Positions 6,841-62,884 of a stretch of DNA of 64,000 bases are shown piece by piece. A program made the translations under genes and the position numbers. Position 1 is the first letter of the stretch; each line of letters begins with the position of its first letter. The notes below the pieces were generated by a model. It saw only the letters and a program-made list of their open reading frames with translations. It was not told the DNA's origin and did not search any database. The stretch covers positions 25,854 to 89,853 of the forward strand of contig CAKPNP010000001.1 of the NCBI GenBank assembly GCA_934169415.1. The letters run 5' to 3'. The DNA comes from an uncultured Bacilli bacterium. GTDB taxonomy: Bacteria; Bacillota_I; Bacilli_A; RF39; UBA660.

Positions 6841-7581
6841 ATGATAAAAACAGAAGAAGAAATTGAACTTTTGAGGATTGCTGGTAAAATTACTGGTGAT
6901 ACTCACAATTATTTAAAAAGTTTTATTAAACCTGGTATAACAACAAAAGAATTAGATAAGCTTGCATATGATTATATTATTAGTCGTGATGCTACACCAT
7001 CTTTCTTAAATTATGAAGGTTATCCTGCTTCTATTTGTACTTCTATTAATGAAGAGGTAGTTCATGGAATCCCTGGGGATAGGAAACTAAAAAAAGGTGA
7101 TATAATATCTATTGATATTGGTGCTTGTTATAAAGGATATCACGGGGATTCTGCATGGACATATAAAGTTGGATCAGTAAGTCGTGAAAAAGAATATTTA
7201 ATGATTCACACTGAAAAATCTTTATTTGAAGGACTTAAGGCTGTAAAACCTGGTAATCACATTGGTGATATAGGTTATATGGTTGAAAGTTATGCAAAAA
7301 AACATAAATTAGGTGTAGTTAAAGAGCTAGTTGGTCATGGTGTAGGTTCCAATTTACATGAGAAACCTGATGTTCCTAATTATGGTAAGCCTCATACAGG
7401 GTTAGAACTAAAAGAGGGAATGGTAATTGCTGTTGAACCAATGCTTAATTTAGGTACAGCTACAGTTTATATCCTAGATGATGATTGGACTATCATAACA
7501 GGTGATGATAAACCATCAGCACATTTTGAACATACAGTTCTTGTTACAAAAGAAGGATATGAAATTTTAACAAAGAGGTGA
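6841..7581 (+). CDS. map: Methionine aminopeptidase type I
   Basis: 246 aa in the pita-bread fold family, with the conserved metal ligands HGIP, DIGA, HGVG and EPM context. Confidence 0.93.
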
Positions 7582-7585
7582 TATA

Positions 7586-7801
7586 ATGGCTAATAACGAC
7601 GTTATTGAAGTAGAAGGTAAAGTAATTGATATTTTGCCTCGTAATGAATACAGAGTAGAATTAGAAAACAAACATACTGTAATTGCTCGCGTTTCTGGTA
7701 AAATCCGAATGAATAAGATTCGCATTTTAACAGGTGATACAGTAGTTGTAGAGCTTTCACCATATGATTTAACACGCGGGCGTATAACTTACCGAAAATA
7801 G
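7586..7801 (+). CDS. infA: Translation initiation factor IF-1
   Basis: 71 aa with an S1-like domain, [36 protein letters not shown]. Confidence 0.95.
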
Positions 7802-7814
7802 TAGGAGGAAAATT

Positions 7815-7928
7815 ATGAAAGTAAAAGCATCAGTAAAACCAATATGTGAAAAATGTAAAGTAATTAGACGTAAGGGAAAAGTATATGTAATATGCTCAAA
7901 TCCTAAACATAAACAAAGACAAGGTTAA
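7815..7928 (+). CDS. rpmJ: 50S ribosomal protein L36 (37 aa; absent from the ORF track because of its size)
   Basis: Manual translation gives [37 protein letters not shown] with a CxxC...C...H zinc ribbon. RBS AGGAGGA lies upstream, and the gene sits between infA and rpsM. Confidence 0.9.
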
Positions 7929-7940
7929 TAGGAGGTTAAA

Positions 7941-8306
7941 ATGGCACGTATTAAAGGTGTAGATATACCAAATAATAAAAGAATAGAAATAGCATTAACT
8001 TATATTTATGGAATTGGTAGAAGTTTATCAAACCAAATTTTAAAGGATGCTAATATTGATATTAATAAAAGAGCTGGTGAACTAGATAATGACGAATTAG
8101 CTAGAATTCGTGATGAAGTTAACAAATATATGACTGAAGGAGATCTTCGTCGTGAAGTTAACATGAACATTAAAACAAAGATGGAAATAAATAGCTACCA
8201 AGGTACTCGTCATAAAAAAGGATTACCAGTAAGAGGTCAAAGAACAAATCGTAATGCGCGTACTCGTAAGGGTAAAGGTAAAGTAGTAGCTAATAAGAAA
8301 AAATAG
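7941..8306 (+). CDS. rpsM: 30S ribosomal protein S13
   Basis: 121 aa with [27 protein letters not shown]13. Confidence 0.96.
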
Positions 8307-8328
8307 ACTTTAAAAGGAGGTTAATTTT

Positions 8329-8712
8329 ATGGCTTATAAAGCAAGAAAGAGAAAAATTAAAAAGAACATTCCTGAAGGTAAAGCATATATTCAATCAACA
8401 TTCAATAACACTATTGTAACTATTAGTGATATGGATGGTAATGCTATAAGTTGGGCATCAGCTGGAACTTTAGGTTTTAAAGGAAGTAAGAAATCAACTC
8501 CATTCGCTGCTGGAATGAGTGCTGAAGCTGCTGGTAAAGCTGCTGTAGATATGGGAATGAAAAAAGTAGCAGTATTTGTAAAAGGATTAGGATCAGGTAG
8601 AGAAACTGCAATCCGTTCATTACAAACTGCAGGTTTAGAAATAACAACCATCACTGATGTAACACCAATCCCACATAACGGATGTCGTCCACCAAAACGT
8701 CCAAGAGGATAA
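8329..8712 (+). CDS. rpsK: 30S ribosomal protein S11
   Basis: 127 aa with [29 protein letters not shown]11. Confidence 0.96.
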
Positions 8713-8731
8713 TAAAAGGAGGGTTTATTAA

Positions 8732-9682
8732 ATGCTAAACTTTGAAAAACCAACATATAAAATAACTGAATATGTTGAAAATAATAATTTTGGAAAATTT
8801 GAATTAGAACCACTTGAGAGAGGTTTTGGTAATACTATAGGTAATGCTTTACGTAGAGTAATGTTATCTAGTATGCCAGGTAGTGCAATAGTAGCCGTTA
8901 AAATAGACGGTGTTATGCATGAATTTCAAACTATCGAAGGTGTAGTAGAAGATGTTACAGCAATTATTTTAAATTTAAAAAATGTTGTACTTAAAAATAA
9001 TTCAGAAGAAGAACAAACTATATATTTACACGCTGATACTGAAGGTGTAGTAACAGCTGGTGATATCAAAACTAATGAATCAGTAGAAGTTATTAATAAA
9101 GATCAAGTAATAGCAACGCTTGCTAAAGGTGGAAAACTTGACATGGAATTATTAGTAAGAAATGGACGTGGATACGTTCCTGGAGATAAAAATAAACAAT
9201 ATATTGAAAATTCTAAATTAGGATTTATTCCAATTGATGCGTTATATTCTCCAATTGAAAAAATTAGCTATGAAGTAGAAAATGCCCGTGTAGGACAAGA
9301 TGCTAGTTATGATAAATTAGTTTTATATGTAAATACAAATGGTTCTTTAAGACCTGAAGAAGCTATTGCTTTAGGTTCTAAAATATTAATTGAACACTTC
9401 AATATTTTAACAGAATTATCAGAAATAGCTGATATGACTGGTATTATGAGTGCTAAACAAGAAGATAGCAAAATTAAGAAATTAGAAACACCAATTGAAG
9501 ATTTAGATTTCTCTGTAAGAGCATTTAATTGCTTAAAGAGAGCTAATATTAATACATTAGGTGATTTAACAGAAAAATCAGAACTTGAAATGATGAAAAT
9601 CCGTAATTTAGGTAAGAAATCATTAAAAGAAGTTATTGATAAGATTAAAGGCATGGGACTTAGATTCCGTGACGAAGACTAG
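8732..9682 (+). CDS. rpoA: DNA-directed RNA polymerase alpha subunit
   Basis: 316 aa with RpoA N-terminal and C-terminal domains ([15 protein letters not shown]; the C-terminal domain reads [22 protein letters not shown]). Confidence 0.96.
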
Positions 9683-9693
9683 GAGGTAATTTT

Positions 9694-10047
9694 ATGTATA
9701 GAAAATTAGGTCGTACTAATAAACATAGAAGAAGCATGCTAGCTAACTTAACTAAAGATGTTATCATGAATGAAAAAATTACTACAACTGAAACAAGAGC
9801 CAAAGAAGCACGTAAATTCGTTGATAAAATGATTTCTTATGGTAAGGATGGATCTTTAGTAGCTAGAAGAAAAGCATTAGCTTTCTTACAAAACGATACA
9901 GAAGCAGTTAAAAAAGTATTTGACGTTTTAGCACCTCGTTATGCTAAACGTAATGGTGGATATACTAGAATAATTAAGCTTGATGAACGTCGTGGAGATG
10001 ATGCTTTAATGGTTATTTTAGAATTAGTTGAAGAGGATGCTAAATAG
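9694..10047 (+). CDS. rplQ: 50S ribosomal protein L17
   Basis: 117 aa with [20 protein letters not shown]17. Confidence 0.95.
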
Positions 10048-10058
10048 CATTCTTTTTT
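10031..10058 (+). repeat. Direct repeat copy 1 (28 bp, AAGAGGATGCTAAATAGCATTCTTTTTT), i.e. the rplQ 3' end plus terminator
   Basis: An identical 28-mer recurs at 11477-11504. The two copies bracket the two zinc-ribbon/bPH genes. Confidence 0.85.
10035..10058 (+). terminator. Rho-independent terminator of the ribosomal/rpoA operon
   Basis: Stem GGATGC/GCATTC (one G-U pair), loop TAAATA, then TTTTTT. It overlaps the rplQ stop codon. Confidence 0.6.
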
Positions 10059-10137
10059 CATAATTATATAATAATAAAGTACTAAAATAGGTTTTAAATA
10101 AAATTATGAATATGTTTATTCAATTATCTTAAAAATT

Positions 10138-10167
10138 GTTGCAAAAATGTTTGAAATATTATATACT
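10138..10167 (+). promoter_or_regulatory. Putative sigma-A promoter for the zinc-ribbon/bPH gene pair
   Basis: TTGCAA (10138-10143), an 18-nt spacer, then TATACT (10162-10167), followed by RBS AAAGGAGA. Confidence 0.35.
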
Positions 10168-10205
10168 AAGCTTAATTAATTTTGTAAAAGGAGAATGTGA
10201 AATAT

Positions 10206-52386: not shown

Positions 52387-53812
52387 TGTTGGTAGACAAT
52401 AAATTTGATAAATGAAATAATTAGTGAGGGATGATGAAAATCATCCTTTTAAAATGCCTTTAATTAAGAAAATACGGGAAATAAAATGATCATATTTTCT
52501 ATATCCAAAAGCAATATGTTTAATACCTTTAATTAAATTATTGGTACCTTCTATAACGCCATTATTAATATCATATTTAAATAAGTTTTGTATATAATTA
52601 ATATTCTCTTTGTACAACTTTAAAGCTTGGATCATTTTAGGAGATAAATCCTTATGATGATTGAATACAATAGATTTAAATTTATCAAAATTTCTTTCTT
52701 TTAAAGAATTAATTAAACCTTGATAATATTCATATGTAGCTTTTAAAGTTGAATTGGTATTAATTAAATATTGAACAATTTCTTTTTGTGAAATATTTTT
52801 ATGAAAATGTTTAGAATAATGTTTTTCATCAGATAAATCATTTTCATTTTTAACAATTAACTTCCAATAATCCTTTAACTTATTATAGTTAGGGTTATCC
52901 TTTTTACATAAACTAACTCTAGTACAATTTAAAGCATTATAAACTTGTGTTACAATATGAAATCTATCAATAGAAATATCCGCATTTTTAAATAATTTTT
53001 TAGCTAAATAAATATAACCAGAATAGAAATCAGTAGAAATATGCTTAACTTTATTTCTTTGTTGTCTAGAGTATCTTCTAAAATATTTTTCTAAATCTTT
53101 AGATTTTCTAGAATCATTAATATCAAAAAGATTACCATTATCATTATCAGTAATGATAAATGCCATTTTACCTTTAGTATCACAAGTAGCTTTAAATTCA
53201 TCCCAATTCATAGAAGTAGGTAATGTAGGATGTCTTAACACGTTATGAGAAGAAATATCATTTAATATACGATCGATTACAGAAACAGAAACATCCATTC
53301 TTTTAGCAATATCCTTTTCAGATTGTTTTTGCATAAGTTCTAATTTTATTTGAAGATTAGTATTATTAGAAATATTTTTATACTTATCAACAAGATTAGT
53401 TTCAGCAATAAAAGTATTATGACAATGTTTACAAAAGAAACGTTGTTTATGTAAAATTAATCTAGTTAAGCAATTATTTTGTTTAGGAATTCTAATACTG
53501 CAGTTCTTTCTAAAATCCCACTTAATAATATCATTGGTAGAGTTATTAATAATATTACAATGGGGACATGATTGTGGAATATAGGTTAAAATACCTTCAA
53601 CAATTTTATATTTCTTGTCATTTATAACCTTTTCTTTAATTTCTGTAATAATATGTATATTTTCGTCTTTAATATTTAATAAATTTAGTATATAATTATT
53701 TGTAGACATAAGTTTGTTCCTTTTAATTTTTTTTGGTTAATTACATTGTATCAAACTTATGTCTTTTATTAAATAAAAAAGTATTAGTGAAATATATTCA
53801 CCAACACTATTT
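52381..53812 (-). mobile_element. ISL3-family insertion sequence (~1.43 kb)
   Basis: The terminal inverted repeats are AAATAGTGTTGGT (52381-52393) and ACCAACACTATTT (53800-53812). It encodes an intact ISL3 transposase. Confidence 0.7.
52441..53709 (-). CDS. ISL3-family transposase (intact)
   Basis: 422 aa with an N-terminal CPHC...C..C zinc finger and a DDE_Tnp_ISL3 core (ISTDFYSGY, NNGVIEGTNNLIKGIKHIAFGYRKYDHF). Confidence 0.85.
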   Translation of the reverse strand: MSTNNYILNLLNIKDENIHIITEIKEKVINDKKYKIVEGILTYIPQSCPHCNIINNSTNDIIKWDFRKNCSIRIPKQNNCLTRLILHKQRFFCKHCHNTFIAETNLVDKYKNISNNTNLQIKLELMQKQSEKDIAKRMDVSVSVIDRILNDISSHNVLRHPTLPTSMNWDEFKATCDTKGKMAFIITDNDNGNLFDINDSRKSKDLEKYFRRYSRQQRNKVKHISTDFYSGYIYLAKKLFKNADISIDRFHIVTQVYNALNCTRVSLCKKDNPNYNKLKDYWKLIVKNENDLSDEKHYSKHFHKNISQKEIVQYLINTNSTLKATYEYYQGLINSLKERNFDKFKSIVFNHHKDLSPKMIQALKLYKENINYIQNLFKYDINNGVIEGTNNLIKGIKHIAFGYRKYDHFISRIFLIKGILKG

Positions 53813-53926
53813 ATAATACAACCCTAAAAAACAAGAAAATTAATTCTTGTTTTTATTTGCCAAAATTATAAACAACATTAAGCAAATTAATTTAAGAAAA
53901 CTAAAAATAAATTAGAAAATAATTTT

Positions 53927-53999
53927 GTTGTGCCAAGTTGGCGACAGCTAGAGCTTAAATATAAGTGTCATAGTGTAATAATTTTTACATACATAAAAG
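53927..53999 (+). repeat. Island-flanking direct repeat, copy 1 (~73 bp; 36-bp perfect core 53957-53992)
   Basis: GTGCCAAGTTGGCG...AAATATAAGTGTCATAGTGTAATAATTTTTACATAC recurs at 60649-60710, with an 11-nt indel and 2 substitutions. Confidence 0.85.
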
Positions 54000-54258
54000 A
54001 CTACAATGTATATGAAAAGTTTCAAAAGCAAAATCCAAAATTTAAAAAGAAGTATACTTTATGGGTTATTTATACTGATTTGAGATTAAAATATGAATAT
54101 GAGAGAAATATGGTTCTTTGATAATTATATTTCAACAATAAAATGAAATTATTTATATAGAAATAAAAATGTAATATTAAGCATATTTCTCATACATTAT
54201 GTATGTAAATATGTTTTTTTATGTTATAATCTTTATAGAGAGTGTAGGTGGTATTGAT

Positions 54259-55134
54259 ATGAAAAAGAAGCAAAATTTAATTCTTCAACCAATATTAAAA
54301 TGGGCTGGAGGAAAAAGACAATTGTTAACACAATTAGAAAAATATTTTCCTAAACATTTTAAATGTTATTATGAACCTTTTGTTGGTGGGGGAGCTGTAT
54401 TATTTCATTTACAACCTAAAAAAGCTGTAATAAATGATTATAATGAAGATTTAATTAATTTATATAAATGTATTAAGGATAATTTAGAAGAGTTAATAGA
54501 AAAATTAAAATATTATGAAACAAAAAATGATTCCGATAGTTTTTATGAAATAAGAGGCATAGATAGGACTGATGAATATAAAAAATGGACCCCTGTAGAA
54601 AAAGCTGCGAGATTGATTTATTTAAATAGGACTTGCTACAATGGATTATTTAGAATGAATAGTGCTGGTCAATTTAATTCTCCTTATGGCTCATATAAAA
54701 ATCCATGTATATGTAATGAACCAGTTCTTAGAGCTATGAATAAGTATTTTAATGAAAATGATATCGAGTTTAGAGCGGGTGATTTTGAAGAAGCGTGTAA
54801 AGATGCAACAAAAGGCTCATTTGTTTATTTGGATCCGCCATATGATCAGTATGATGAACAATTAAACTTTGTTGGATATACTAAAGATGGATTTACACGT
54901 GTGGATCAAACAAGATTAAAAAAAATATGTGATAAACTTATTGAAAAAGGATGTTATGTCATGATTAGTAATTCCAAAACACCATTTATTATTGATTTGT
55001 ATAGTGACTCAACTAAATATATTACTTACACTATAAACACTGTTAATGCAAGAAGAAATATAAATAGTAATGCTAAAAAAAGAGGAGAAGTAGAGGAGGT
55101 TTTGATTATTGGAAAATTGGATATCAAAGAATAA
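54259..55134 (+). CDS. Dam-family (D12 class, alpha-group) N6-adenine DNA methyltransferase
   Basis: LKWAGGKRQLL, YYEPFVGGGAV (motif I) and VYLDPPY (motif IV). The ATG at 54259 has RBS GGTGG. Confidence 0.85.
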   Translation: MKKKQNLILQPILKWAGGKRQLLTQLEKYFPKHFKCYYEPFVGGGAVLFHLQPKKAVINDYNEDLINLYKCIKDNLEELIEKLKYYETKNDSDSFYEIRGIDRTDEYKKWTPVEKAARLIYLNRTCYNGLFRMNSAGQFNSPYGSYKNPCICNEPVLRAMNKYFNENDIEFRAGDFEEACKDATKGSFVYLDPPYDQYDEQLNFVGYTKDGFTRVDQTRLKKICDKLIEKGCYVMISNSKTPFIIDLYSDSTKYITYTINTVNARRNINSNAKKRGEVEEVLIIGKLDIKE

Positions 55135-56410
55135 TAAAGTGTGGAACTTTTTGTTTGAAAAATATAATATTGTTGATGAAGTAAATAAAAATGGGTTCTT
55201 TGAGATAGCTGCTGATCAGATAAAAGAAGCTGGAAGAGAACCACGATTAATGACTAAGTTTGATAGTAGTGAAAACTTACCTAAAATCTTTACAGATAAT
55301 AAATTAGCAATACTTCCTATTAGAAGAGGCTCTTACATAATAGGTAGATTTGAAAATTATCAAGATGTTGAATTAAATAATAATATAGATGTTGTTACAA
55401 AGTATTTACCAGATTATATTACAACTATCGATTATAGTAATATAACTAGTGAGGCTGTTTCGTTAAACTCGGCTTATGTTTCCGGAATGATCGAAGATAT
55501 TGTCGGTGAACCTGTTATTCCGACAATTCAAGGAAGAATGGGAACAGGAGAATTTGATTATCAAATTTCTTTAAATGATAAAACAAATTTTAATGTAAAT
55601 GTTCAAAATTCTCAAATGGAAATAGATGGAAGTTATGAAGGAATCACAAAGTTTGTTATATTGGAAGCAAAAAATCATTATATGAAAGATTTCATTATAA
55701 GACAATTATACTATCCATATAAAGTATGGAAAAAGGTTACTAATAAAGAAATTATTCCAGTGATGCTTATAAAACATGATAATATTTTCAACTTTTATAT
55801 ATATTCTTTTACAGATGATAATAATTATAATAGTATCAATTTAAAAAAAATAAAAAGATTTATATTAGATGAGGCATATAATCCAATAGAATTTGAAGAT
55901 ATTATAGATGTTATGAATAATGTTAAATATGTAGAAGAAACGGATCAAAATCCTTTTCCACAGGCTAATTCATTTTATAGAGTATTGGATTTAATTAATG
56001 AACTAAATAGTCAAGAATTATCACCAAGTGAAATTGCAGAATTATATGAATTTGATATTAGACAAGCGAACTATTATCTAGCAGCAGGTCAATACTTAGG
56101 ATTTATAGAAAAAGATAAGAATTATAAATTAACTGATTATGGTAAAAGAATAATGAAAATGAACCATAAGAATAAAAATCTAGAGATAATTAATGCTATT
56201 TTATCTCATAAGCCATTTTATTTTGCATTAGAACAATACATAAAATACTTTGATTTTAAACCAAATAAAATAGCTGATATTATTTATGATTATAGAGCTG
56301 AAATCAATTCTAGAGAGACTGCTATTAGAAGGACTAGTACAGTAATAGCATGGATAAAATGGATCATAGAGTTAACTACTACAACAGAGCAAAACCCTTT
56401 TGAAAAATGA
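55109..56410 (+). CDS. Putative restriction endonuclease partner of the Dam-family methyltransferase; hypothetical
   Basis: 433 aa. Its start overlaps the methyltransferase gene end by 26 nt. There is a candidate PD-(D/E)xK arrangement (GEFDYQI ... VILEAKNH) and a probable C-terminal wHTH. No confident family assignment. Confidence 0.45.
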   Translation: MENWISKNNKVWNFLFEKYNIVDEVNKNGFFEIAADQIKEAGREPRLMTKFDSSENLPKIFTDNKLAILPIRRGSYIIGRFENYQDVELNNNIDVVTKYLPDYITTIDYSNITSEAVSLNSAYVSGMIEDIVGEPVIPTIQGRMGTGEFDYQISLNDKTNFNVNVQNSQMEIDGSYEGITKFVILEAKNHYMKDFIIRQLYYPYKVWKKVTNKEIIPVMLIKHDNIFNFYIYSFTDDNNYNSINLKKIKRFILDEAYNPIEFEDIIDVMNNVKYVEETDQNPFPQANSFYRVLDLINELNSQELSPSEIAELYEFDIRQANYYLAAGQYLGFIEKDKNYKLTDYGKRIMKMNHKNKNLEIINAILSHKPFYFALEQYIKYFDFKPNKIADIIYDYRAEINSRETAIRRTSTVIAWIKWIIELTTTTEQNPFEK

Positions 56411-56524
56411 GACCGTTGAGGTCTTTTTTTATAATAATTATAAAATATTTTTAAAATATTTTATAATTATTATTGACTTTTAAATAAAAATGTAGTATTT
56501 TATGGTTGAAAACGGAGGTATATT

Positions 56525-56746
56525 ATGAATGTAAAGCAAGATAATTTCAAGAGAATTGCTGAAAATAGAACTAATAAAATAATAGATTTAATTTCAAAAC
56601 TTAGTAATTTAAGAAATAATACATCATTTTATGAATATACAGATGAACAAATGGAAGCAATATTTGATGCTATACAAAAAGAACTTGATAAACAAAAAAA
56701 AGAATTTAGAAAGGATAAAAAGAAAACGAAAAGATTTCAATTGTAG
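56525..56746 (+). CDS. Small basic hypothetical protein (73 aa)
   Basis: RBS GGAGGT. K/R-rich helical. It immediately precedes the GHKL ATPase gene. Confidence 0.4.
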   Translation: MNVKQDNFKRIAENRTNKIIDLISKLSNLRNNTSFYEYTDEQMEAIFDAIQKELDKQKKEFRKDKKKTKRFQL

Positions 56747-56760
56747 TAGGAGGTAGTAGT

Positions 56761-58689
56761 ATGAGCATGTTTGATAGTTTTAGAGCAAAACCTAAATGGA
56801 AATTTATTGAAAATGGATATGGAAATGAATCTAGTTTAGATTCAACAGATGTTGAAACTTTTAAAAAGGATCCAATAGCATCATTAGCAAGGGAATCATG
56901 CCAAAATTCTATTGATGCAAGAAGAAATGATGAACCTGTAAAAATTGTTTTTAAGTCTTTTTTAATTAAGACAAATAGTATACCTGGAATTAAAGAATTA
57001 AAAGAAGAATTGATTGCATGTAGAGATTCACATGAACAAAATACAAAATATTATAAAAAGTTTGATTCAATGATATCATGTGTTGAAAGAGAAGAAATAT
57101 TATGCTTAAGAATTAGTGATTTTAATACAAAAGGATTAGAAGGAGTAGCAACAAATGATAGAAATAAAGCGTTTTATTATTTAACTAAAGGGAATGGTCT
57201 TACAACTAAGATTAGCTCGAATAGTGGTGGCTCTAAAGGAATAGGTAAATTTGCTTCATTTGTTGCAAGTGATCTTCAAACTGTTTTCTATGCAACTTTA
57301 AATGAAAACAATGAAAAGGGATATATTGGTATTTCTAAACTTGCATCTAGATTGTTAAATCAAGAAACTGGTATGTGTACGACGGGGTATGGATATTTCT
57401 GTAGGTCTGAAAAGGTACTTCCAATTCTTGAAACACTAGTATTAGATAAGTATTTTGTTCGAGATAAGTATGGAACAGACATTTATGTTATTGGATTTAG
57501 AGCAGAAGAAAATTGGAGAGCAGCTATAATTTCAAAAATACTAGATAGTTTTATGTGTGCAATACAATATGGAGATTTAGAAGTAGAAGTTGATGGTATA
57601 GAAATTAATAAAGAAAAATTACAAAGTATAGTATATAATGATTCTTATATAATTCCTAGTGAAAAGAAAAATATATTGGCACAATATGTTCTTTTAAATA
57701 ATGAATTTGTTCACACAAAGACTGTAGATATTAAAGGATACGGTAACGTCAAAATATATTTAAAAGATTTTGATAGGCAGAATGAAAATTTTGCAACAAA
57801 TAAATGTGTTATGGTTAGATATCCATATATGAAAATTACAGATTTCAAAATACCATTTGCAAAACCTTGTTCAGCATTATGTATTATAGAAAAAAATGAG
57901 TTAAATAGTATGTTAAGAGAAGTTGAAAATCCACAACATACAGATTGGGAACCAAATAGAATAACTGATGATACTGAATTAAGAAGAGAAATAAAGAGAG
58001 TAATTAAAGAAATAAAAGATCAAGTTCAAATATTTGCTGATGAAGTTTTATTAAGTGGAGATAAAGAAGAAATTGATATAGATGGTGCAGGAGATTATTT
58101 AGCAGATTATAATTTTGGCAATGATGATATTCCTTTATCTGGAGAAGAAGTTACTGAAAAGCCTAAAGTTGTAAATTCTAGAAGGGCAATTCTTAAAAAT
58201 AATATAGGTGATAATTCGGAAGAAGGAGATAATTCCTCAGTTTATGATATTGGCAGTCACCAAGACAATGGTGATGACTCATCTGCACCAAGCGGAAATA
58301 ATCTAGGAACTGGTTCTGAAATTCATGAGGGTGATGAAACCAGCGGTTATAATCAAGAAGGTGATGAAGAAGTTCTTCATTCAGTACAATTAAGTGGAAT
58401 GAAAGTAAAAATTTTACTTTTAGATAAAGAAAATGGTAAATACTTGATAGTTTTTAATTCTATCTATGATGAAAGTAATTGTGATTTAGAATTATATTAT
58501 TTAGATGATAAAGGAGGAAGATATATTCCTAATGTTACATCAGCTTATATTAATGGTAATGAAGTAAAAATAGATAAAAATAGAATCAAGAATTTTAGTA
58601 TAGAAAATGGCATTAGATATAAAATTGAAATGAATACAGATTTAGATGATTTATATGCTTGTGAGGTGAGAATATATGCAAATAGGTAA
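56761..58689 (+). CDS. GHKL-superfamily (MutL/MORC/Hsp90-like Bergerat fold) ATPase domain protein, 642 aa, with an acidic linker and a C-terminal beta-rich domain
   Basis: It has an N-box-like SLARESCQNSIDA (aa 41-53), a G1-like RISDFNTKGLEG (aa 117-128) and a Gly-rich G2-like SNSGGSKGIGKFASF (aa 153-167). RBS GGAGG. Confidence 0.6.
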   Translation: MSMFDSFRAKPKWKFIENGYGNESSLDSTDVETFKKDPIASLARESCQNSIDARRNDEPVKIVFKSFLIKTNSIPGIKELKEELIACRDSHEQNTKYYKKFDSMISCVEREEILCLRISDFNTKGLEGVATNDRNKAFYYLTKGNGLTTKISSNSGGSKGIGKFASFVASDLQTVFYATLNENNEKGYIGISKLASRLLNQETGMCTTGYGYFCRSEKVLPILETLVLDKYFVRDKYGTDIYVIGFRAEENWRAAIISKILDSFMCAIQYGDLEVEVDGIEINKEKLQSIVYNDSYIIPSEKKNILAQYVLLNNEFVHTKTVDIKGYGNVKIYLKDFDRQNENFATNKCVMVRYPYMKITDFKIPFAKPCSALCIIEKNELNSMLREVENPQHTDWEPNRITDDTELRREIKRVIKEIKDQVQIFADEVLLSGDKEEIDIDGAGDYLADYNFGNDDIPLSGEEVTEKPKVVNSRRAILKNNIGDNSEEGDNSSVYDIGSHQDNGDDSSAPSGNNLGTGSEIHEGDETSGYNQEGDEEVLHSVQLSGMKVKILLLDKENGKYLIVFNSIYDESNCDLELYYLDDKGGRYIPNVTSAYINGNEVKIDKNRIKNFSIENGIRYKIEMNTDLDDLYACEVRIYANR

Positions 58690-59599
58690 AAGAGGATATC
58701 CTTACCCAATATTAAATAATGCTACAAATTACAATTGTTATAAAAAATCTACATATTCATTAGAATATGAGAATGAAGAAGACCACAATAATTTCACATT
58801 GAAAAATGTTAGAATTGAAACGAATAGCGAAGAATTAAAGTGTTTAATAGATAAAAAATTAGTTAAAGCAATGATAGTAATTGAATCATCATCAACTATA
58901 TTCAAATATACTGAAGAAATATCTACAACACCCAAAAACATAATAATACCAATAGGTAATTTAAGTGGAAAAGTAGAAATTTCAAGTATTGTGTATGCAA
59001 CAGAAAACATAGTTGGCTTTTCTAGTAATGATTTTACTGAGGATTTTGATAGTTATAAATTTAACATTGAAAAGTATTGCCCAATTGCAATTGATGACGG
59101 ATATATTGTTAAAGTAGAATATAATGATTTTGATGATAAAAAAGTTTCATCGATATTTTCAGTTGTTGAAAGTTATGATTCTGAATTAAAATATATGAAA
59201 GTAATAAATGGCGATAGGAAAATTAAAATTGAATTACCAGAAGATGAATTTAAGAAATTTGATGCATTAAATGGTCAAAGTACATTTTATAATCTCTTCT
59301 TTTCAATAATAATTATTCCAGCATTATCATCATGTTTAAAAGATTTTCAATCAGAAATAAAGTATCAAGAAAAAACAATAGAAGATATTTCAGATTCACA
59401 TAGTTGGTTTTTATCTATTCAAAATGCATACAAGAAAATCTATAACAAGGATATTAAAAATGAAGAATTTATCAATCTTAATGCACTTGAATTTAGTCAA
59501 ACTATATTCGATTATTGTTCAGTTAAATCAATTAAAGATTTTTATGACATAATAAAAAGAAAGACTGATGCTAGTGAGGAGGATGAAGAAAATGTTTAA
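58676..59599 (+). CDS. Hypothetical protein (307 aa), co-operonic with the GHKL ATPase
   Basis: Its start overlaps the upstream stop, suggesting translational coupling. No recognisable family. Confidence 0.5.
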   Translation: MQIGKRGYPYPILNNATNYNCYKKSTYSLEYENEEDHNNFTLKNVRIETNSEELKCLIDKKLVKAMIVIESSSTIFKYTEEISTTPKNIIIPIGNLSGKVEISSIVYATENIVGFSSNDFTEDFDSYKFNIEKYCPIAIDDGYIVKVEYNDFDDKKVSSIFSVVESYDSELKYMKVINGDRKIKIELPEDEFKKFDALNGQSTFYNLFFSIIIIPALSSCLKDFQSEIKYQEKTIEDISDSHSWFLSIQNAYKKIYNKDIKNEEFINLNALEFSQTIFDYCSVKSIKDFYDIIKRKTDASEEDEENV

Positions 59600-60410
59600 C
59601 AAAATAATTAATATTTCTTTTATAACTGATGATGCTTTAAATACATTATATAGTAATCCTCAAAAGGTAACAGAACTAATAAGAAATAATCCATTTGAAT
59701 CATCGTGGTTAAATGAATTGATAAATAAAGAACCATTCGAGTTAAGAAAAATAAAAATTGAAGATTTTGAACTTAAAATATCACCAAATGGTAATTATAA
59801 AGAAGTTGAATTTGATAATGCTGTATGTTTGTATGAACATTTGAAAGATATTCCTAGATATATATTAATCGATGAAAGATTCTGGGTATGGCTTGAGTTA
59901 GGTAAATTTTATAGAGTTGCAGTTCAGTCGATGCCAGTAAAAAAAGATACTGCATTTGAAGGACAATGGATATTCACTAGAGGGAATAAACGTGGACTTT
60001 GGTTTAATGTTTTTTCAAGAAGTTATTTTTGGGTAGAATTTACTGTTGATGAAAATACTGAGAATAGATACGAATTAACAAAATTTGCTTTTGAAAAAAT
60101 AGAAAGAATTCGTCACTTAACATTTGATAGTAAATATAGAAATATTGTATTTAACAGTTTAAAAGCAGAAAAAATGCTATATGATAAATATGCTAATGAT
60201 CCAGAATATATGGAAACATTTAAAAAGTGTGAATCTGGAATTGGAAGTTATAATATATATACTTATTTAAGAAAAGCATTATCATTGTATGGAAGCGTAA
60301 GAATATTAGATTTTATGAGTGATGAAGATATATTTAATATTGCTTATCAAAAATTAGAAAATGCATTTTTTGAAGTTCATAAAGGCAACATTGAATATTT
60401 AATGAAATAA
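59592..60410 (+). CDS. Hypothetical protein (~273 aa), last gene of the GHKL operon
   Basis: RBS GAGGAGG lies 8 nt upstream of ATG 59592, overlapping the upstream gene end. It is Trp/Phe-rich (FWVWLEL, RGLWFNVF). No recognisable family. Confidence 0.5.
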   Translation: MFNKIINISFITDDALNTLYSNPQKVTELIRNNPFESSWLNELINKEPFELRKIKIEDFELKISPNGNYKEVEFDNAVCLYEHLKDIPRYILIDERFWVWLELGKFYRVAVQSMPVKKDTAFEGQWIFTRGNKRGLWFNVFSRSYFWVEFTVDENTENRYELTKFAFEKIERIRHLTFDSKYRNIVFNSLKAEKMLYDKYANDPEYMETFKKCESGIGSYNIYTYLRKALSLYGSVRILDFMSDEDIFNIAYQKLENAFFEVHKGNIEYLMK

Positions 60411-60648
60411 GATATTTAAAAGTATAAAAACTATGACTAAATATTTTAAAAGACAATGTAACAGATATTATGATGGTGCACCAAAGAATCCAGCTGAGAA
60501 TTATGTAAGACATAAATTAGGAACTTATAATCTCTCGGAATTCAAATAAATAATCGAGAAAATTAAATCTCGATTTTTATTTTTAAAAATATCTACAATA
60601 TTTACTACATTATTTAATACAATTAAGAATAATACGGAAGATAATTTT

Positions 60649-60710
60649 GTGTGCCAAGTTGGCGCCTAAATATAAGTGTCATAGTGTAATAATTTTTACA
60701 TACCTAAAAG
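60649..60710 (+). repeat. Island-flanking direct repeat, copy 2 (~62 bp; 36-bp perfect core 60668-60703)
   Basis: It matches 53927-53999. Confidence 0.85.
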
Positions 60711-60873
60711 AACATAATTAAAATTTTACATACCAAACTACATACCATAATATTTAAAATGTATTAATAATTTTTAAAATATTACAAAAATAAAACCTAG
60801 TATTTACTAGGATTTATCAATATTTATCAATGATTTAACAGTTCTTAAAAATATATTTTAGCGGCCCCCTGAA

Positions 60874-61458: not shown

Positions 61459-61809
61459 GTGGCGTATATGAAGGAGTTAAATTACAAAAAAATAGGTGAA
61501 AGATTAAGAAAACTTAGAAAATATATGGGATTAACGCAAGAACAAGTGGCCGAAATCGTAAGTTTAGGTCGAGATGCAATATTGAGAATCGAAAAAGGTG
61601 ATCGAAAGATTGATTTACAAGAATTAATGAATTTTTCAAAATTATATAATATAAGTATGGATGAATTGACAGCGGAAGAACATATTGTAAGTAGTAACGA
61701 TATAGCATTTGCAAGGGTTTTTAATGAATTAAGTGAAAAAGATAAAAAAGAAATTATTAGTTTAATCGAATATAAAAATATTTTGAAGTCTAAATATAAT
61801 GATAATTAA
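61459..61809 (+). CDS. XRE-family HTH repressor (ImmR-like); probable start ATG 61468
   Basis: LRKYMGLTQEQVAEIVSLGRDAILRIEKGDRKIDLQEL is an HTH_3 domain. It precedes an ImmA/IrrE peptidase gene. Confidence 0.8.
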   Translation: MAYMKELNYKKIGERLRKLRKYMGLTQEQVAEIVSLGRDAILRIEKGDRKIDLQELMNFSKLYNISMDELTAEEHIVSSNDIAFARVFNELSEKDKKEIISLIEYKNILKSKYNDN

Positions 61810-62212
61810 TATAACACCAGAAGAATTGGCAAACAACGAATTAGAAAAATTAAGAAATAAATATAAACTAACTTTTCCAATAGATCCATTTAGAATTCTT
61901 CGTGATGCTGGCGTTTTTGTTGTATTAAAAGATTTTGAAAATTTATATGGCATTATCGTTAATGATATAGATAATTGCACAATTGTAGGAATTAATTCAA
62001 ATAGTGGATGCCAAAGACAAAAATTTATAGCAGCACATGAATATTGTCATTTTATAAAAGATTTAAATAAAGAACAGGGAACAACAGATTATATTAAGTG
62101 TTTGAAAGCTTCAAATAAAACAATAGAAAAATATGCAAATGCTTTTGCAGGTTACTTGCTTATGCCAACAAATGAATTAAATGTTATTTGTGAACAATAC
62201 AAAAATAAATAA
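61799..62212 (+). CDS. ImmA/IrrE-family zinc metallopeptidase, terminated prematurely by an in-frame TAA
   Basis: The HExxH motif AAHEYCHFI is present. The ORF stops at 62210-62212, but the same frame continues with ImmA-like C-terminal sequence (IAEYFGVSFSSCLNRIAYDLNLI). Confidence 0.7.
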   Translation: MIINITPEELANNELEKLRNKYKLTFPIDPFRILRDAGVFVVLKDFENLYGIIVNDIDNCTIVGINSNSGCQRQKFIAAHEYCHFIKDLNKEQGTTDYIKCLKASNKTIEKYANAFAGYLLMPTNELNVICEQYKNK

Positions 62213-62299: not shown

Positions 62300-62884
62300 T
62301 TGAATTTAATAGAAGGAGATATTTCTTCAGAATCTTTAAGAAAAAGAATGAAAAAATATGATATACCATCAAAAAGACAAGAACTTATAGAAAATAAGAT
62401 TGATAGCACGTTGTTATCAAATGTTGTTAACTCAATGAATTTTTTAATGGCTGATATTAATAAATATACTGGTCAAAAATTTTTACAAAACTATATTTAT
62501 AATGATAATAAATTTGACTGTGAATTACAATTATTTATGGAAAACATAGATGATTATGATGTAGGAAAATACATAGAGCAAGTTGTACGTTTTACGTATA
62601 GGTTTATAGTTATTAACCATTTTAGAGACGGAAATGGTCGTATATCAATGGCTATATTAAATTGGCTTTTGAGTAAGAAAAAAATACCACCGATATATAT
62701 AGATTCAAAGCGCAAAAAAGAATATTTAGAAGCACTTTCAATGATAGATTTGAAAGGAGACTTTGTACCATTTATAATGCTTATTGAAAAAAGGATAATT
62801 CATACTATGATTGAATTACATAAATATCTATTTGTTGATGAAATAGATGAGAAAATAATTAGTGATGTAGTGCCAGTTAATTAA
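62300..62884 (+). CDS. Fic/Doc-family protein (same reading frame as the upstream ImmA gene)
   Basis: HFRDGNGRISMAILNWLL matches the Fic motif HPFx(D/E)GNGR. The first Met after the stop is at 62300, and the upstream in-frame sequence is ImmA-like. Confidence 0.7.
   Translation: MNLIEGDISSESLRKRMKKYDIPSKRQELIENKIDSTLLSNVVNSMNFLMADINKYTGQKFLQNYIYNDNKFDCELQLFMENIDDYDVGKYIEQVVRFTYRFIVINHFRDGNGRISMAILNWLLSKKKIPPIYIDSKRKKEYLEALSMIDLKGDFVPFIMLIEKRIIHTMIELHKYLFVDEIDEKIISDVVPVN

Follow-up and report, generated by a model that had tools for sequence, protein, structure and literature searches.

GHKL ATPases encoded beside restriction-modification (R-M) systems were described as paraMORCs in 2008 (Iyer, Abhiman & Aravind, PMC2292703), a partnership that the first-pass annotation of the DNA considered here had mentioned; bacterial relatives of MORC and MutL were at that time predicted to act inside R-M systems, and since then only the nuclease-fused paraMORC3/Shedu branch has been tested. 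The Shedu type I-D protein VcSduA, whose ATPase Glu is required for defence, is the only paraMORC-type GHKL protein that we found with demonstrated anti-phage activity (PMC12137116), and the literature search on paraMORC2 returned the 2008 defining paper only and no functional study. A second description comes from the listing of PDC-M33 as one of 145 phage defence candidates; it was picked up through "guilt-by-embedding", the loci searched being those of BREX, DISARM or type I R-M, and appears in the supplement as the three-family cassette FAM_02818>>FAM_02838>>FAM_01881, seen 98 times (Payne et al. 2024, bioRxiv 10.1101/2024.01.29.577857). The subject of the present analysis is a four-gene module, S-A-B-C, situated at positions 56525–60410 of a stretch of 64,000 nucleotides (nt), hereafter the window, of contig CAKPNP010000001.1 from an uncultured Bacilli bacterium.

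The three larger proteins of this module belong to the catalogued candidate. PADLOC identifies A as PDC-M33A (8.8e-138, residues 12–640 against positions 4–625 of the 627 of the model), B as PDC-M33B (3.8e-52) and C as PDC-M33C (6.6e-29), so that the models are matched nearly end to end and the gene order, A, B, C, is that of the candidate; the embedding in type I R-M loci is likewise reproduced in the Ligilactobacillus salivarius loci described below. The first-pass annotation had not recognised the arrangement among the named anti-phage systems, a view that does not survive this assignment; technically this is the outcome that it had named as refuting its proposal, yet PDC-M33 is the label of an uncharacterised candidate, listed as three families without S, the operator or the methyltransferase link seen here, and a literature search returned no paper mentioning PDC-M33 or DUF6339. 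The module is real and uncharacterised, less novel than had been implied and not a new kind of object. What is added here is the fold of A, the non-nuclease character of B, S and its putative operator as parts of the module, a near-universal partnership with methyltransferases and the boundaries of the cassette in which the module lies.

An open reading frame (ORF) scan of the window shows six co-oriented genes on the + strand, namely a methyltransferase, a restriction endonuclease (REase) candidate, S, A, B and C. S (56525–56746, +) encodes a basic, probably helical protein of 73 aa, A (56761–58689, +) a protein of 642 aa, B (58676–59599, +) one of 307 aa and C (59592–60410, +) one of 272 aa. 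The raw ORF of C extends from 59568 to 60410; its start is placed at 59592 because the lengths of its homologues (259–274 aa), the calls of 272 aa made on a near-identical contig and a GAGGAGG Shine-Dalgarno site 9 nt 5′ of ATG 59592 agree, a correction by which the size of about 273 aa first given for this protein is essentially upheld. The predicted translational coupling is also borne out: the S-to-A gap of 14 nt carries AGGAGG, A and B overlap by 14 nt, an overlap kept in nearly all related loci, and B and C overlap by 8 nt (ATGTTTAA). A terminator-like hairpin with a T-run (56409–56425, +) lies 3′ of the restriction gene, a promoter-like site, TTGACT-17-TATTTT, recognised by its match to the consensus only, is found 5′ of S (56473–56501, +), and a second terminator-like hairpin with a T-run (60552–60575, +) closes the unit. 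Having its own terminator and promoter boundary, S-A-B-C is therefore probably a transcription unit of its own rather than part of an operon shared with the R-M pair. The conserved cassette also contains, between C and the terminator, a 38-aa ORF, MTKYFKRQCNRYYDGAPKNPAENYVRHKLGTYNLSEFK (60434–60549), at which no gene is called in the near-identical contigs.

By its predicted structure and its motifs, protein A is a Bergerat-fold GHKL ATPase with an S5 transducer domain and an intact ATP site. The motifs ESCQNSIDA, DFNTKG and SGGSKGIGKF, on which the GHKL reading had been founded, are present and correspond to GHKL motifs I (ExxxNxxD), II (DxxxxG) and III (GxxGxGxK); their key residues E45/N49/D52, D120/G125 and G156–K163 are invariant in an alignment of 30 homologues, and most of the ATP-site residues are still invariant in 33 homologues with identities down to 25%, E45, N49, D52, D120, G125, G157, G160, G162 and K163 being invariant or nearly so in both alignments. 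The structure predicted from the 30-sequence alignment is confident for residues 1–433 (56761–58059, +), which adopt the Bergerat ATP-binding fold followed by the S5 domain, 260–290 residues aligning structurally to two-domain GHKL+S5 ATPase modules. The acidic linker and the C-terminal β-rich domain foreseen from the sequence are both found in the model: residues 447–538 (58099–58374, +), rich in Gly, Ser and Asn, are disordered (predicted local distance difference test, pLDDT, <50) with an isoelectric point (pI) of 4.05 and 22 D+E versus 5 K+R, whereas residues 541–642 (58381–58689, +) form a β-sandwich. The S5 domain has an invariant R353 and a K358 that close homologues retain, and either residue may play the role of the basic finger. 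Sequence families were of no help in this assignment; neither Pfam at E<=0.1 (HATPase_c_3 and HATPase_c included) nor NCBIfam nor PHROGs gives a family for A, no Pfam domain is found in 10 distant relatives either, and the PDB chains contain no sequence match in single or profile searches. The family is large: clustering at 50% identity gives 4,622 clusters with a limit of E<=1e-3 and 1,642 with one of E<=1e-30, and the full-length architecture is retained among the best 150.

Within this fold A fits the paraMORC2 type, in which it is placed by the published description of that family and not by its reference sequences. Like paraMORC2, A combines GHKL and S5, lacks the MORC motif and has a conserved ExxxH at the C-terminal end of S5; furthermore, the module, like that family, which is known mainly from Gram-positive bacteria or from cyanobacteria, occurs in Gram-positive carriers and has methyltransferase or restriction enzyme neighbours, although the paper stresses helicase and Vsr partners (PMC2292703) whereas the fixed partners here are S, B and C. 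The ExxxHxxW pattern is found by regular-expression search in 33/33 family members and the MORC motif GhXhhpXXRhl in 0/33; indeed E389, H393 and W396 are invariant in all 33 sequences, being conserved like the ATP site, and this segment might represent a metal or substrate site. In the window (residues 389–400, 57925–57960, ENPQHTDWEPNR) it reads QHTDWE and lies in a low-confidence loop of the model; QHTDWE is reminiscent of how the MutL endonuclease motif, DQHA(X)2E(X)4E, begins.

Having neither the GhXhhpXXRhl motif nor a match to HATPase_c_3 or HATPase_c, A is not a MORC sensu stricto, and it shares only 8–13% identity with the N-terminal ATPase modules of MORC3/MORC2, SMCHD1 and MutL. It lacks CW and coiled-coil domains, the MutL C-terminal domain and the MORC S5 motif, and it possesses a unique acidic tether and β-sandwich. 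The structural matches on the MutL side are to structures of the MutL N-terminal domain, the C-terminus of A being occupied by the tether and the β-sandwich. Compared with VcSduA (PMC12137116), a single protein with a fused DUF4263 PD-(D/E)xK nuclease, A is accompanied by three separate partner proteins and no nuclease is recognisable in the module. Mismatch repair of the Dam/MutH/MutL style was considered and rejected, A being devoid of the MutL C-terminal domain and no MutS-like gene being recognised among the neighbours examined; the MutH/Sau3AI-family gene seen in one locus, L042, forms with Dcm an R-M pair of the Sau3AI type.

Related loci, designated by an L and a number where they must be told apart, comprise 2 genome loci (single-sequence scan), 34 metagenome loci (profile scan), 1 IMG/VR locus, 6 plasmid loci, 1 phage locus and 4 contigs with a 98%-identical protein; their genes were annotated by means of phmmer/hmmsearch profiles made from the six proteins of the window. 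Wherever a locus includes enough DNA, A, B and C are contiguous, and the R-M link is kept in distant relatives, in keeping with the conserved linkage that had been proposed as a check of the module. The carriers are Bacilli metagenome-assembled genomes, Lactococcus, Ligilactobacillus, Planococcus, Priestia and a Clostridium innocuum prophage, all having the module beside methyltransferases or restriction enzymes. Of the 23 loci in which no less than 2 kb is visible to either side, 22 have a DNA methyltransferase at most ~4 kb away from the module.

The partners are varied in type and in position. Dam and a DUF6997-type REase are found 5′ of the module in the window, L001, L002, L004 and L010, and 3′ of it in L008, L020–L023 and L031; a DpnII-type trio (Dam, an N6_N4 methyltransferase and R.DpnII) is found in L007 and L015, while in L018 and on the Lactococcus plasmid pLLUC320A an AlwI REase is accompanied by either a double-D12 methyltransferase or a pair of D12 methyltransferases. 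Planococcus has an AlwI-family REase with Vsr and Dcm, Priestia a Sau3AI/MutH-family REase with Dcm, and Dcm occurs alone or with other genes in L029 and in the prophage. On three L. salivarius megaplasmids (L038 5564–11524, L039, L040) the order is integrase, hsdS (185 aa), hsdM, an 80-aa ORF, A, B, C, the module following hsdM by 18 nt with no hsdR within 8 kb; one of these, p612A (L040), has a split A and a group II intron (ltrA) within B, and its copy is therefore decaying. In L012, L017 and L035 the methyltransferase gene begins before C has ended, its start and the stop of C sharing 4 nt. A Dam gene stands beside S-A-B-C without a recognisable REase in L014, and in L025 and L035 the REase is not in view, the former being cut at A and the latter showing ~0.7 kb past the methyltransferase. 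The methyltransferase of L035 (13586–14923) is a 445-aa Dam protein with a C-terminal extension like the DUF7226 region of the REase, which hints that DUF7226 may be an adaptor shared between methyltransferase and restriction enzyme. A strict dependence on Dam or GATC was also considered; most partners are GATC-related (Dam, DpnII, AlwI, Sau3AI), yet type I HsdSM and Dcm partners occur, and the link is therefore with methyltransferases in general.

Phage-borne copies of the module appear to be rare, two having been found in 50,697 phage records in addition to the IMG/VR contig. In the temperate phage NatCom_9291 (L043 1–10726; host [Clostridium] innocuum) S-A-B-C comes right after the integrase, C is longer (354 aa), and an HTH-fused (helix-turn-helix) Dcm and an AAA_5 (McrB-like) protein lie on the 3′ side.

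In the window the methyltransferase partner is a Dam-family (D12) N6-adenine DNA methyltransferase (54199–55134, +; PF02086 5.2e-65, TIGR00571 "dam" 2.1e-86, above cutoff, and PADLOC MTase_II 3e-97), the true start of which is likely M21 at 54259 rather than the ORF start 54199, since the near-identical copy (L044) is called at 291 aa. The start of the type II restriction endonuclease candidate (55109–56410, +; 433 aa) overlaps the end of the methyltransferase gene; its product consists of DUF6996 (2.4e-32), DUF6997 (1.9e-59) and DUF7226 (4.8e-37), is recognised by PADLOC as REase_II PDLC03513 (2.9e-84, residues 8–421) and has no sequence relative among the PDB chains. The two genes, separate, adjacent and overlapping, thus have the organisation of a type II R-M system, so that the first-pass placement of the module beside a Dam methyltransferase and an endonuclease is confirmed as regards the pair itself; the terminator-like and promoter-like sites between the pair and the module probably set the module apart as another transcription unit, and in this respect the picture of an operon coupled to the pair was too simple. 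The pair is suspected, from the family of its methyltransferase, to recognise GATC. This tetranucleotide occurs 72 times in the window (1–64000) versus 127.6 expected from trinucleotide frequencies (ratio 0.56) and 4 times within S-A-B-C versus 9.7 expected, a shortage that would agree, if weakly, with GATC restriction having long operated in the lineage.

That the R-M pair travels together with S-A-B-C as a single cassette follows from the existence of a 98.7%-identical unit elsewhere and from its repeat-bounded ends. Window positions 53829–60617 (6.8 kb) are 98.7% identical to a segment of human-gut contigs (L044 7073–13856) that lies in a different defence island, with a D12-HNH pair, GmrSD, an insertion sequence, UvrD and, in one case, Cas9 as neighbours. 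The ends coincide with an imperfect direct repeat of ~170–190 nt found by repeat search, the left copy of which is at 53826–54007 and the right copy at 60549–60718, where the homology with the cassette copy in the other contigs stops at 60617. There is no recombinase inside, and an Rfam and tRNA scan near the cassette ends found no attachment site; the arrangement looks like the insertion of an R-M cassette with a long target duplication.

The 73-aa basic protein noticed upstream of A in the first reading turns out to be a conserved partner. S has a pI of 9.7 and a net charge of +6, and its homologues share the pattern NFKRIAExRTNKI...LGNLSN.S.YEYT...IF.AI..EL; no relative was found in Pfam, NCBIfam, PHROG or the PDB. 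It lies directly 5′ of A in most loci, or 5′ of an inserted large gene (of 845 aa, for instance), and accompanies the module in such distant loci as the Planococcus and Priestia plasmids (where A is ~30% identical), prophage NatCom_9291 and the IMG/VR contig, so that S is, judged by this recurrence, a fourth gene that the module conserves. It is also a candidate autoregulator. In the L. salivarius loci an unrelated 80-aa hydrophobic ORF stands where S would be. The inserted gene (831–897 aa) is found between S and A in five loci of one subclade (L007 1319–3862, L008 7299–9992, L010 5505–8042, L012 673–3203 and L027 7487–9986; it is split in L009) and has as its sole recognisable domain a sigma-70 region 4 (Pfam 9e-13; PHROG "RNA polymerase sigma factor" 2e-14); it might act as a regulator or be a fifth component that is optional.

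A perfect palindrome of 21+21 nt, ATAATAATTATAAAATATTTT t AAAATATTTTATAATTATTAT, occupies positions 56431–56473 of the window, its inverted repeat being 100% complementary and the promoter-like site of S abutting it. It recurs 54–95 nt before the start of S in L001 and L002 (ATAATAATTGCAAAATATTTT a AAAATATTTTGCAATTATTAT), in L018 (AAAATAATTGCAAAATATTTTGCAATTATTTT) and in L019, and an imperfect copy is found in L010. Between the window and L001 TA is replaced by GC at mirror positions of both arms, that is, the change is a symmetric covariation. When 27 loci were scanned for the half-site pair, the top match of the entire locus fell within the 100 nt 5′ of S in 7 of them, the AT-rich core giving the scan low specificity. 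The palindrome is probably the operator of S-A-B-C and would be the target of a dimeric repressor, for which S is the obvious candidate.

Proteins B and C had both been left without a family. This still holds for B, which has none in Pfam, NCBIfam or PHROGs, whereas C carries PF19866 (DUF6339; 1.8e-25); no PDB chain is significantly related by sequence to either protein in single or profile searches. The AlphaFold2 model of B (pLDDT 78.6) consists of β strands at residues 27–187, predicted to form tandem FN3/Ig-like (immunoglobulin-like) β-sandwiches, and of helices at 189–300, which make up a C-terminal domain; Foldseek returned nothing at E<=1e-3, the best matches being cytokine receptors with tandem FN3 domains. 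In an alignment of 34 sequences that includes plasmid and prophage copies B is invariant only at P9-Y10-P11, E70, S159, P215, L217, W244 and Q275. Since the fold has no nuclease match and the acidic and Lys residues of the nuclease-like pattern discussed below are not conserved, B is most likely a scaffold or adaptor without a catalytic signature. C is invariant only at N76 and W98; its conserved positions as a whole are mostly Trp, Tyr, Arg and Asn, and just below invariance Trp, Tyr and Arg prevail. When the B and C families were scanned against PADLOC at a low threshold, nothing but the PDC-M33 models and noise came up. Thus, neither a nuclease fold in the model of B nor a conserved set of catalytic residues in B or C was found.

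Taken together, these features suggest that S-A-B-C may be a defence module that regulates itself, is coupled to methylation and has an ATP-gated DNA clamp as its driving part, a reading for which we consider the chances to be evenly balanced. According to it S would repress the operon through the palindrome; A would dimerise upon ATP binding and clamp or loop DNA, as MutL and the MORCs do; B and C would be adaptor or sensor subunits coupling A to a signal, to the methyltransferase or to the restriction enzyme; and the host DNA would be spared by virtue of the methylation mark of the adjacent methyltransferase, unmethylated incoming DNA being acted upon. Because no nuclease is visible, the effector step would be either cooperation with a restriction enzyme or non-nucleolytic exclusion. 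By the first route the module would potentiate or back up the linked restriction enzyme; by the second, at the loci having a methyltransferase only, it would block the use of unmethylated DNA without cutting it, as in BREX-like exclusion.

The separate elements of this proposal are not equally secure. A role against phages or other mobile genetic elements is likely, the module residing in defence islands, on plasmids and in a prophage. Its functional dependence on the linked methyltransferase or R-M system is slightly favoured over its independence; at least five R-M types are found as partners, either 5′ or 3′ of the module. That the effector step is a non-nucleolytic clamp is a tentative proposal that we deem possible and, on balance, unlikely. 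An even bolder version, in which S-A-B-C would be the "restriction" half of a new methylation-marked immunity, the GHKL clamp recognising unmarked DNA and entrapping or silencing it with B, C and perhaps the methyltransferase as adaptors, would explain the pairing with any type of methyltransferase, sometimes without a restriction enzyme, and is regarded by us as improbable. The likeness to BREX and type I R-M lies in the fact that a methyltransferase adjoins an ATPase-containing multi-gene module, some loci pairing hsdS-hsdM directly with the module, and the apparent lack of a nuclease recalls BREX by analogy only; on the other hand, BREX, DISARM and type I families were not detected in S, A, B or C, and the ATPase is of the GHKL and not of the P-loop/helicase type.

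Several points weigh against a methylation-coupled clamp. The binding of S to the palindrome is one that we infer only; the literature search returned no functional test of PDC-M33, studies testing other PDCs included; and an effector or nuclease possibly lies hidden in C or at the ExxxH site of A. The loci sampled are mostly from Bacillota and are phylogenetically non-independent, and part of the adjacency to R-M genes may be the ordinary clustering of defence islands, R-M being the commonest defence genes. The partner methyltransferases differ in specificity and in chemistry (N6-methyladenine, 5-methylcytosine, type I), and it is hard to see how one module could read all these marks unless it docks on the methyltransferase itself. 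Finally, a terminator and a promoter part S-A-B-C from the R-M pair in the window, and one locus (L032) shows no methyltransferase in view, its neighbours being AIPR and UvrD.

Some of these points lend substance to the main rival, namely that S-A-B-C is a self-contained defence or abortive-infection system, independent of methylation, that merely travels with R-M genes, sensing a phage cue through B or C and acting through A or an unrecognised effector in C. The module has, in fact, its own promoter, operator and terminator, it occurs in L032 without a methyltransferase, its partner R-M systems are heterogeneous, and across loci it sits beside many unrelated defence genes, such as AbiG (on the lactococcal plasmid), GmrSD, AAA_5 McrB-like, AIPR with UvrD, a Schlafen helicase and Cas9. 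However, with a methyltransferase adjacent in 22 of 23 loci, and this in either gene order, the association goes far beyond anything to be expected from clustering alone; three loci have a methyltransferase gene that starts within the end of C, hsdM is tightly spaced with the module, and the R-M pair and S-A-B-C travel as one 6.8-kb unit. We regard this rival as rather unlikely.

The same cassette invites a second alternative, by which the module would serve the R-M cassette instead of the host, through control of its establishment or expression, MutL-like processing of the nicks or breaks of self-restriction, or retention or insertion in the genome. The occurrence of a repeat-bounded cassette without a recombinase of its own in two contexts at 98.7% identity is in line with such a role, as is the resemblance of A to MutL N-terminal domains; S with its palindrome resembles, from what is generally known of R-M systems, the logic of their controller proteins. 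Yet S-A-B-C is also found with methyltransferase-only partners and type I HsdSM and in varied positions, A is devoid of the C-terminal dimerisation/endonuclease domain of MutL, no MutS or MutH partner is conserved, and family scans and the fold search with B found nothing recombinase-like in the module, so that a cassette-serving function appears distinctly improbable.

Modification-dependent, type IV-like restriction of foreign methylation, within an "immigration control" region, is very improbable. The GmrSD and McrB-like neighbours of several loci could be read in this sense and a GHKL protein could conceivably replace the GTPase/ATPase motors of such systems, but no modified-base reader or nuclease domain is recognisable, nothing ties the module to a particular modification, and coupling to a methyltransferase at the operon level would be self-defeating unless the specificities differed. 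The least probable of all is an ATP-driven nucleolytic complex of a GHKL motor and B as a Cas4-like PD-(D/E)xK nuclease, a reading disfavoured in spite of the E101, D140-D141 and D154-x-K156 (E...DD...DxK pattern) kept by close homologues of B and of weak matches of its family to Cas4 (2–3 of 25 members, E ~0.005–0.011) and Csa1 (1 of 25, E 0.015), inasmuch as the 34-sequence alignment, widened to plasmid, prophage and distant copies, no longer keeps D140, D141, D154 and K156 and the tandem β-sandwiches and helices of the model do not provide the αβββαβ core.

The cassette offers a compact and widespread test case, in which the ATPase has just three small proteins beside it, a regulator is apparently built in and the methyltransferase partner is defined. 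Should the module prove to be coupled to methylation, it would reveal the contribution of a GHKL clamp to restriction and would bear on how eukaryotic MORCs came to be linked with DNA methylation; if the clamp-based immunity were true, it would provide a prokaryotic precedent for methylation-linked silencing by eukaryotic MORCs; and if the module is methylation-independent, PDC-M33 would be one more validated defence system. For annotation the gains are immediate, in that A can be entered as a GHKL+S5 ATPase, S as the fourth gene and 59592 as the start of C.

The surroundings of the cassette and of one related locus deserve a brief mention. On the left flank there is a transposase-like ORF of 422 aa (52441–53709, −), ISL3-like by sequence reading. 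On the right flank (61459–62212, +) an XRE-type HTH gene is followed by a gene with a HEYCH metallopeptidase motif, ImmA/IrrE-like by sequence, and then by one (62300–62884, +) in whose product the Fic motif HFRDGNGR can be read. In L016 a 1026-aa ORF (7112–10192, −) with a eukaryotic-type RNA-dependent RNA polymerase domain (PF05183, 2.7e-15) lies ~1 kb 3′ of the module.

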